From contig JAZDJP010000056.1 in assembly GCA_043803805.1 (NCBI GenBank), forward strand, positions 11,680 to 75,679: 64,000 bases of DNA. Reading direction: 5' to 3'. Under the pieces are notes generated by a model. It was not told the DNA's origin and made no database searches. It was given only the letters and a program-made list of their open reading frames with translations. The stretch is from Planctomycetota bacterium. Lineage in GTDB: Bacteria; Planctomycetota; JAZDJP01. Below are positions 11,701 through 13,315 of the stretch, in pieces. Every line of letters starts with the position of its first letter. Position 1 is the first letter of the stretch. The position numbers and the translations under genes were made by a program.

Positions 11701-13315
11701 ATTCGGGTAGTTGGGAAGGAATGGTCAACGATGTTGTTGAGGAGGACGATATCGGCAGCAATGTGGGAGACAGCATCAAGGATTGTCAGGATAACCTCAT
11801 TTCCTGCCGACGGGATCTGGAGGATTTTGCGCGGTTGTGGGTGCGGCGGGACGACTTCAACCCGGCGACGGATCAGATCTTGTTCAAATGGACGAACATC
11901 ACCTCGGGATCGCCGGGAATCCGGATATTCCGCGCCGCGAATGAAAACGGGGATACGGGTTATCTCACGGATGAGAACGTTCGGCAAATCAGTACCGTGG
12001 TGTGGAACAATTCGGACGGGAGCATGAACAACGCGTATTACAACTACGATCCGTATGCCGATCGGGACAACGGGATGGGGCTATGCAAGGTGGTTCCGGG
12101 CGGGGTGGTGGATGTGACGAGCGTCTATGAATGGCAGATGGGAAAACCCAATTATTTCATCTTTGAAGGGGTAAACCCTGGGACGGGCGACCTTGAGGTG
12201 AGGTTTGTCCGGAGCGGCGTTGTGATGGGTAAAACCCGCGTGAGACTGGAGTTGAAAAAAATCACGGACATGTATCAGCGGTGGACGGTGGGAGAGGACG
12301 AAAACGCGCCGCCGGGAAATCTGGCGGACGTCGGAACGTTCCGGTATCCCGCGCCGCAAACTCCGGACGAGCGGGACATGATCCTGTTTGTCCACGGTTA
12401 CAACCTGCAGACATGGGAGAAGGACCGGTACGCGGAGACGATGTATAAACGGCTCTGGCACACGGGATACAAGGGGCGGTTCGGGTTGTTCCGATGGCCG
12501 ACGACGGTGTGCGAATACGGGACGTGTTTCGACAAGAGCGAACTGCAGGCGTGGGGATCGGCGGGAGGGTTTTTGACGTTGCTCAACCGGTTGAACGCGG
12601 GGGGTATTCGGGGAAAATCCGGATTCTGGCACACAGCCACGGGAACGTGGTGGCGGGGGAGGGGTTGCGGTTGGCGGGGAATAAACAGGTGGTGGATACC
12701 TTCGTGGCGAGCCAGGCGGCGGTGGCGGCGCACGGTTATGATGGCGCGGCGCCGTATGCGCCGTTCGGGGCGATGGACGACGGCACCCCCAATGCCTACC
12801 GGGAGTATTGGACGCCGCTAGCGGATGGGCAGTTGATCGTGGGGGCAATGGGCGGCGACGGGAAACTTCCGTACTTCACGGCGACGCGTGGGGCGCGGCG
12901 GTTTATCAACTACTTCAATAAGAAGGATTACGCATTGGACAAATGGGTTTTGGACACCCAGACAAAACCGAACAACGGGGTGATGGGATGGACGGGGTGG
13001 TATTACGGATATGATTCGGCGGGTGGTTTGTTCTACAAGAAACCGGCGCCGGTGTCGTCGGAGCGGATAGCGCTCATCTTGCCCGGAGAGACCTACGAGA
13101 TGTTTTCGTTCTGCGCGGAGGCGAGGTCGTACGCGCTGGGGCAGCAGGCGGGGGTGTCGGGCGGAATTTTCACGACGGTCGGCCAGGTGGATTTGGAGAT
13201 CGGGGATTATAATTTCGGGGATAAGCATCCTGGGCATAGCGGACAATTTCGGTCAACGTATGCAAAACGAAACAAGTATTGGGGACGGTTAATGCTGACT
13301 TATTACGGTGATTGA
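8790..13315 (+). CDS. giant secreted multidomain protein: signal peptide, Ig-like domains, HAF-type repeats and a C-terminal alpha/beta-hydrolase (DUF900-like lipase/esterase) domain; interrupted by a -1 frameshift in a G6 run at 12599-12604
   Basis: MRRFAWCAAIALVPWLSGMLPAEGAAAP is a signal peptide. Ig-like segments read TPPVLS...DALSGV and ...DSLSGV. There are at least 7 repeats of the form AINNAGKVLGD / GIRINNRGQVIGN / GLNNLGDVVGN, which match the HAF extracellular repeat (TIGR03803). The frame then reads ILFVHGYN...FRWPTT...AWGSAGGFLTLLNRLNAGG and ends in the G6 run. It resumes in the -1 frame as YSGKIRILAHSHGNVVAGEG, a nucleophile-elbow AHSxG motif. ORFs 8730..12821 and 12494..13315 are the two halves. 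GC drops from about 68% to about 55% from ~11600 onward. Confidence 0.6.

Follow-up and report, generated by a model that had tools for sequence, protein, structure and literature searches.

A frame change in a G6 tract divides the gene for a predicted secreted DUF900 hydrolase in Planctomycetota

Within the window (the whole 64,000-nucleotide stretch of Planctomycetota DNA analysed here, part of a metagenome-assembled genome from groundwater), the open reading frames 8790..12821 and 12494..13315 are two pieces of one gene of about 1508 aa, parted by a change of reading frame inside a run of six G residues. Judged from its sequence, 8790..13315 is a single gene whose product would be a Sec-secreted, multi-domain protein of about 1508 aa, ending in an alpha/beta-hydrolase domain of the DUF900 type with a predicted Ser-Asp-His triad. 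The break is, on balance, probably a genuine and recent frameshift allele.

The frame break

The sequence at window positions 12597-12607 is gcGGGGGGtat, with the G6 run on the forward strand where the original prediction had placed it. Translation reproduces both of the reading frames that had been described, 8730..12821 and the overlapping 12494..13315, the latter carrying AHSHG. Frame 0, which can be read from an ATG at 8730 or at 8790, gives ...FLTLLNRLNAGG up to the G run, a segment also given as ...AWGSAGGFLTLLNRLNAGG; beyond the run it continues for 72 out-of-frame codons to a premature TAG. The −1 frame gives ...GGYSGKIRILAHSHGNVVAGE..., or more fully ...GGYSGKIRILAHSHGNVVAGEGLRLAG..., and ends at a TGA (Table 1). 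With one G added, the two pieces join into one ORF, 1528 aa long from ATG 8730 and 1508 aa long from ATG 8790; the latter is the length that had been proposed. Some 85% of the gene precedes the run.

A profile HMM made from 16 homologs, and not from the window itself, aligns with frame 0 over positions 27-316 (E 2e-77), as far as the Ala codon 12597-12599, and with the −1 frame over positions 317-536 (E 3e-74), from the Gly codon 12602-12604 onward; between the two matches, bases 12600-12601 alone are left over. Because the HMM coordinates 316 and 317 abut, with two bases left over, the frame must change inside the G run. At about 12600, the same place as the frame change, the phase of GC3 changes too, and the chance that the −1 frame would remain free of stops for 237 codons is about 8e-4, as calculated from base composition. 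Taken together, the HMM matches, the GC3 phase, the stop-free odds and a DUF900 match that runs across the junction (see below) show one split gene and not a chance overlap. The hydrolase domain is therefore divided between its HGYN and AHSHG motifs, as had been claimed, by an HMM break that lies in the run itself. The original prediction had also allowed that the true domain boundary might lie elsewhere; the profile instead splits mid-domain, at 316/317.

The same result bears on the reading that two genuine, separate genes, or a natural domain boundary, meet at the G run. Two overlapping ORFs do exist, and GenBank annotates the first of them as a complete CDS. However, a family profile that is split mid-domain at adjacent positions effectively refutes this reading, and the second ORF would begin inside the alpha/beta fold, without the oxyanion strand. 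All relatives, moreover, are single ORFs, and the second ORF is absent from the GenBank annotation. Of the readings considered here, two genes is the one to which we give the least credence, and that next to none.

Adding one G, which gives LNAGGY (AGGY), is one way to restore the frame; removing two, which gives LNAGY (AGY), is another. The spacing from LN to Y is two residues in the family consensus and three in several members (L037, L043, L053 and L081). Since both spacings occur among homologs, both repairs are compatible with the family. The loss of a single G from G7 is the simpler mutation of the two.

Elsewhere in the window, several groups of overlapping ORFs were considered as frameshifts and rejected. 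By their Pfam matches, 6859/7566 are separate genes for ETF beta and alpha, and 43382/43987/45054 are hisB, hisC and hisD. The ORFs at 37623/38381/39409 and at 58297/59910/62201 are likewise separate genes where Pfam matches exist, with two of the three in the last group having no Pfam match.

Table 1. Parts of the split hydrolase gene and the adjoining partner gene, in window coordinates
Feature	Position	Strand	Remark
Upstream gene part, frame 0	8790..12604	+	start at 8790 is that of GenBank CDS MFH1022958.1
Predicted signal peptide MRRFAWCAAIALVPWLSGMLPAEGAAAP	N-terminus of 8790..12604 product	+	
Ig-like domain Big_13	~9537-9728	+	
Ig-like domain Big_7	~10002-10205	+	
Six INxxGxV repeats	~10323-11177	+	
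Middle domain common to homologs, ~150 aa	~11595-12239	+	
First third of DUF900 hydrolase domain	3' end of 8790..12604	+	frame 0
HGYN motif	12393..12404	+	frame 0; H, G and N invariant in family
G6 homopolymer, site of frame break	12599..12604	+	frame-0 homology up to 12599; −1-frame homology from 12602
Out-of-frame tail of 72 codons (IRGKSGFWHTATG...) and premature TAG (12819-12821)	12606..12821	+	so annotated in GenBank
Downstream hydrolase part, −1 frame, with TGA (13313-13315)	12602..13315	+	
AHSHG, predicted nucleophile elbow	12629-12643	+	−1 frame
Conserved Asp in NKKDYA	12917-12934	+	−1 frame
Conserved His in PGHSGQ	13229-13246	+	−1 frame
Intact partner gene, ATG abutting hydrolase stop	13316..14434	+	MFH1022959.1

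Existing annotation

Exact look-ups identify 8790..12821 with GenBank entry MFH1022958.1, an "Ig-like domain-containing protein" of 1343 aa, and the next accession, MFH1022959.1, with the gene at 13316..14434. The C-terminal hydrolase piece was absent from the protein collection in exact look-ups from 11 starts (ATG and 10 alternatives). As far as the look-ups show, the hydrolase remainder at 12822-13315 carries no GenBank annotation, and the public record bears no sign of the frameshift. MFH1022958.1 hides a C-terminal DUF900 hydrolase domain, and the main value of the finding is one of annotation quality: the entry is due for labelling as a frameshifted gene, or for correction after a check of the reads.

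The hydrolase domain and the consequence of the break

The N-terminal 1150 residues of the protein comprise the signal peptide, Ig-like domains (Big_7, Big_13 and OmpL47-type) and six INxxGxV repeats. The hydrolase domain follows, and in the repaired protein residues 1193-1300—a stretch that spans the junction—match Pfam PF05990 (DUF900) with 26.2 bits, against a cut-off of 20.5. Invariant columns in an alignment of 17 sequences form four motifs: H-G-x-N, A-H-S-x-G-N, N-x-x-D-x-A and H-S. An AF2 model of the repaired domain (pLDDT 70, pTM 0.78) shows alternating strand and helix core elements and puts the break at the end of a long helix (120-147), before the strand (151-157) that bears the Ser of AHSHG. 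HGYN occupies the oxyanion-loop position in the model, after the first core strand of the alpha/beta fold, and by analogy with canonical alpha/beta-hydrolase topology it probably has an oxyanion role. In a Foldseek search of the PDB the top matches were generic lipases and esterases, PhaZ7, B. subtilis LipA and pancreatic lipase among them, all of them weak (best E 9e-4), and a profile search of PDB sequences found nothing significant and no close member with a solved structure. The Pfam score, the alpha/beta-hydrolase fold and the combination of nucleophile elbow, acid and His place the domain in PF05990/DUF900; the catalytic roles of Ser, Asp and His are predicted ones.

PF05990 gathers alpha/beta hydrolases of unknown function, and what the window's domain shares with them is the fold, the AHSxG elbow and the conserved Asp and His. 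It differs in being the C-terminal module of an Ig-like protein of about 1500 aa with a signal peptide, and in being disrupted by a frameshift. A recent survey describes DUF900 as mainly alphaproteobacterial (PMC11878206); the subfamily found here, unlike that picture, belongs mainly to Verrucomicrobiota and Planctomycetota. A further comparison, drawn by description, is with Cinquedea, a bactericidal phospholipase that Haloferax secretes and whose homologs mostly carry DUF900 (bioRxiv 10.64898/2026.06.10.730825). Both are secreted alpha/beta hydrolases tied to DUF900, but Cinquedea is archaeal, is encoded as a single gene and has no Ig-like N-terminal region.

Of the conserved motifs, HGYN lies 5' of the break, whereas the Ser of AHSHG and both conserved residues, Asp and His, are found 3' of it. 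Because all three predicted catalytic residues are downstream, the annotated product is without the whole inferred triad. Translation would leave the hydrolase frame about 11 residues before the nucleophile Ser and stop 72 codons later, giving a product that would retain the N-terminal domains and lose all three predicted catalytic residues. Such a truncated product is probably enzymatically dead.

Relatives of the hydrolase

When 5.8 billion proteins were searched with the last 382 aa of the repaired protein, 72 homologs were recovered, the best of them 46% identical and all of them uninterrupted at the position of the break; in many, 98-99% of the query is covered within a single protein, and many have precomputed PF05990 matches. 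A scan of GTDB with one genome per species found 203 loci, of which 79 were kept, none of them from the source genome. Almost all of the 79 are from Verrucomicrobiota MAGs, at no more than 42% identity. The original prediction had proposed checking orthologs for an intact frame, and every one of the 79 related loci is open across the site, with a single open frame, or one tblastn HSP, covering both HG..N and AHS.GN. None of these loci has a G/C run of 5 or longer at the aligned site, where Gly-Gly is not conserved. Two homolog copies are broken elsewhere, one in a Nanopore MAG (L076) and the other the third tandem copy of locus L075. In L081, an ENA contig with planctomycete-type neighbors, an intact He_PIG/fn3/DUF900 protein of 1590 aa aligns across the junction, and the partner gene described below stands beside this intact hydrolase as well.

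Many of the full-length homologs are 1300-1800 aa long and carry Sec signal peptides, and a reading of the protein as a T6SS effector was dropped for that reason. The purA product of the window is 100% identical to MFH1022960.1, a Planctomycetota adenylosuccinate synthase, and has a next-best match that is only about 60% identical, so that the lineage is a deep one. Among JGI metagenome contigs, a search for the exact DNA flanks with a variable gap at the tract returned nothing, and a protein-based scan found no close relative.

Origin of the frame break

Three causes had been offered for the break: a homopolymer sequencing error, a genuine inactivating mutation and slipped-strand phase variation. 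The first two are both plausible, and the third found no support. The genuine allele that we favor presupposes that the G6 call reflects real DNA, as it probably does. An ordinary replication-slippage mutation in the sequenced population would then be the most likely cause, leaving a G run of the wrong length for an open frame (G6, where G7 or G4 would be in frame). What results would be a pseudogene, perhaps polymorphic: a young loss-of-function allele of a secreted accessory hydrolase, and not a regulatory device. The other genes of the window, about 45 in number, have full- or near-full-length Pfam matches wherever a family was found (five are without a family), and none of them is split into overlapping frames; among the intact ORFs are ones of 1809, 886, 876, 850, 830 and 772 aa. 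G/C runs of at least six number 53 in the 64 kb (37 of length 6, 14 of length 7 and two of length 8), and 51 of these sit in coding sequence, yet only the run at 12599-12604 breaks a frame. Since the other coding runs, G7 and G8 included, leave their frames open, the assembly does not appear to be generally unreliable at homopolymers. The downstream −1 frame is undecayed, with no stop in 237 codons and the family-wide residue at 17 of 17 fully conserved columns; on the genuine-allele reading, this absence of decay would make the event recent. Free-living bacteria usually carry enough pseudogenes for one frameshifted accessory gene in about 45 to be unremarkable, and it is this load, together with the clean remainder of the window, that tips the balance toward a genuine allele. 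A real allele would mean that the catalytic module of this large secreted hydrolase has lately been lost from the lineage. In kind, the case is close to other homopolymer frameshift pseudogenes and consensus errors, in which an accessory gene, intact in all else, is cut short when a G run changes by one unit; there are no secondary lesions here, and nothing sets the case apart from that class.

An error in the consensus is a real if lesser possibility. The true genome would then have G7 and an intact 1508-aa gene, with G6 a homopolymer miscall arising from low coverage, from the co-assembly of strains or from an incompletely polished long-read contig. The break sits exactly in a homopolymer, a classic site of consensus errors, and the perfectly preserved downstream frame is equally what an artefact would show. 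The probable source study generated MAGs with MEGAHIT and with metaFlye, the latter unpolished, and a long-read MAG of a candidate matching lineage is among them, most of the study's MAGs being Illumina/MEGAHIT assemblies (PMC11484514). Noise in the length of G runs is also present in data from the same site. The Logan contig L080 (1966 bp, SRR27925880), the one other assembly of this organism, derives from a MinION R9.4.1 run on borehole KR0015B of the Aspo Hard Rock Laboratory, at 69.4 m below sea level (PMC11484514), for which the supplement gives metaFlye assembly at default settings and mentions no polishing. This contig equals window positions 12627-14594 except for two one-base contractions of G runs: one, from G6 to G5 at 13932-13937, splits the partner gene, and the other, from G3 to G2 at 14580, is near the contig tip. 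As L080 starts at 12627, 22 nt past the G6 tract, it says nothing on the tract itself. Where the Nanopore contig and the window disagree, however, it is the window that has the open frame, its own G6 at 13932-13937 keeping the partner ORF intact. Also against a consensus error, the break is a solitary one: one of the 51 coding G/C runs of at least six breaks a frame, long ORFs are intact, and no other homopolymer-linked frame break was found in the window among those runs and the roughly 45 genes. An unpolished R9.4.1 assembly would be expected to contain tens of indels per 64 kb, and Illumina assemblies of adequate coverage seldom show consensus indels at G6. Because the 64 kb does not hold indels by the tens, the contig behaves like a short-read or well-polished assembly.

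The remaining readings would make the tract functional, and even jointly, phase variation and programmed frameshifting are quite unlikely. Under slipped-strand phase variation, taken singly a very unlikely reading, the tract would be a contingency repeat that switches the hydrolase domain reversibly ON (G7) and OFF (G6). The break does lie in a poly-G tract in which a single-unit change restores the frame, the protein is of a secreted or surface type with Ig-like domains, and the downstream frame is undecayed, as would be expected were it frequently ON. In these respects—an intragenic poly-G, a secreted or surface gene, a one-G toggle—the locus is like the poly-G/C contingency loci of Campylobacter, Neisseria and Haemophilus. 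The PhasomeIt cut-off for Campylobacter, whose genome is AT-rich, is a G/C run of at least 7, with experimental support mainly for at least 8 (PMC6321876). A G7 ON allele would just reach that cut-off; the assembled tract has six Gs and would have seven only if ON, so that it is at or below the threshold (PMC6321876). Further, unlike contingency tracts, it is neither over-represented nor conserved in relatives, and it lies near the 3' end of its gene (at 85% of the ORF) and not near the 5' end. The window has 62.6% GC and uses GGG for 34% of its Gly codons; its G/C runs number 53 at six or longer and 16 at seven or longer, mostly in housekeeping genes such as ETF-alpha and cdsA. Such runs of at least six are in fact rarer than a first-order Markov model predicts (44 of G and 9 of C observed, against 64 and 39 expected), and the tract does not stand out from this background. 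With no G/C run of at least 5 at the site in the 79 related loci, and no conserved Gly-Gly, the run is lineage-specific. To our knowledge, there is no precedent for SSR phase variation in Planctomycetota. Nothing, in sum, suggests an evolved on/off switch. More doubtful still is the more particular proposal that G6/G7 is a polymorphic switch in the groundwater population, by which a secreted DUF900 domain, lipolytic or antibacterial perhaps, would be reversibly detached from the Ig-like part that carries it, with the partner left intact; if true, it would be a first for SSR-type phase variation in an uncultured Planctomycetota lineage of the deep subsurface. Programmed −1 ribosomal frameshifting or transcriptional slippage on G GGG GGU, which would yield the full-length hydrolase from G6 as it stands, we regard as highly improbable. 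The heptamer, at 12599-12605 in frame 0, formally matches X XXY YYZ, and the downstream frame is intact. But homologs offer no parallel, since all 79 loci read through in a single frame; folding of the 120 nt that follow is no better than that of shuffled sequences (z −1.27), and the sole nearby hairpin abuts the heptamer directly instead of standing 5-9 nt away. No Rfam match was found, which also counts against programming. G-only heptamers are, besides, poor slippery sites in bacteria, and six Gs fall far below the roughly nine A/T needed for efficient slippage by RNA polymerase.

The partner gene

The gene that abuts the hydrolase stop is intact, and in its predicted product an N-terminal TM helix is joined by some 60 aa of disordered linker to a pair of beta-sandwich domains (pLDDT 83). 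Its homologs lie directly 3' of the hydrolase gene at 67 of the 76 loci with enough downstream sequence, in more than one copy at 15. The hydrolase-partner pair is widespread in Verrucomicrobiota and Planctomycetota (PVC bacteria) and is functionally uncharacterised; as a conserved unit, it is worth more follow-up than the frameshift.

The arrangement resembles that of a secreted hydrolase and a membrane-anchored helper or immunity partner. The comparison, with lipase and Lif foldase pairs and with Tle and Tli pairs, is one of analogy only: in each, directly 3' of a hydrolase gene and in the same orientation, stands a gene whose extracytoplasmic product is anchored in the membrane by its N-terminus. 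The partner here, however, is all-beta, with two sandwich domains and no Lif or Tli match, and the hydrolases, in contrast to those of Tle-Tli pairs, carry Sec signal peptides and not T6SS features. Searches with Pfam, PADLOC and Foldseek did not place the partner in a known foldase or immunity family: Pfam gave only a weak CarboxypepD_reg match, no PADLOC model matched, and Foldseek against the PDB returned generic beta-sandwiches from which no function could be assigned.

No sigma-70-like promoter on the coding strand and no terminator-like site was found at the junction of the two genes, and the sole promoter-like match on the + strand lies within the partner gene. Frameshifted translation ends 494 nt short of the partner's start codon, where the intact frame would run right up to it, and the frameshift could in this way weaken translational coupling to the partner.

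Hydrolase and partner genes

The DUF900 hydrolase gene and the gene whose start codon abuts its stop form a conserved two-gene module: of 76 related loci, 67 have a partner homolog lying 3' of the DUF900 hydrolase gene and sharing its strand, and more than one copy of it is present in 15 loci. The partner product, a TM-anchored protein with two beta-sandwich domains, could serve as an immunity protein, a foldase or an anchor protein. GC content in the window is much lower in the partner gene (0.514) than in the hydrolase gene (0.62).

In GenBank, the hydrolase of the source MAG is represented by MFH1022958.1, a 1343-aa "Ig-like domain-containing protein" that ends at the premature stop, and the rest of the hydrolase domain, 494 nt at 12822-13315, carries no annotation. 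The look-ups made gave no sign that the GenBank annotation of this MAG records a frameshift. The reading frame is also broken in two further members of the hydrolase family, each time at a different position; the first comes from a Nanopore-derived Microflora Danica MAG, the second from a low-coverage SPAdes MAG.

Coordinates of features in the window and in related loci
Feature	Coordinates	Strand	Locus
Partner gene	13316-14434	+	window; compared with related loci L001-L079, L081
WD40 beta-propeller protein, about 880 aa	48131-50791	-	window
WD40 beta-propeller protein, about 880 aa	50795-53425	-	window
Large secreted/glycan-degrading gene	1-5428	-	window
same	5429-6703	-	window
same	21645-24137	-	window
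same	46416-48104	+	window
same	56696-58279	+	window
same	59910-62231	-	window
Frame-broken hydrolase homolog	about 6000-6240		L076 (Nanopore-derived)
Frame-broken hydrolase homolog	10015-10745		L075 (SPAdes)

Homopolymer runs

A Logan contig (L080, SRR27925880_328269), derived from a MinION R9.4.1 run on Aspo groundwater from borehole KR0015B, corresponds to window 12627-14594 and places the organism in that borehole. It is identical to the window apart from two shortened G-runs, with G5 in place of G6 at 13932-13937 and G2 in place of G3 at 14580, which show homopolymer noise of the Nanopore type.

Across the whole window, homopolymers show a strong strand asymmetry, the plus strand having 44 G-runs of at least six nucleotides against 9 such C-runs, and 132 against 39 at length five. 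This asymmetry grows with run length, is not influenced by gene orientation, and exceeds what the GC skew of the window (+0.058) predicts; the skew itself turns negative beyond about 57 kb.

Other gene content

Large secreted and glycan-degrading functions are abundant in the window: it encodes an alpha-2-macroglobulin-like protein (>1809 aa), an alpha-L-fucosidase, a rhamnosidase, two GH123 proteins and a GH2, interspersed with housekeeping genes (ETF, purA, uppS, cdsA, uvrB and the his operon). The two WD40 proteins are tandem paralogs within a stretch of lower GC (0.56-0.59).
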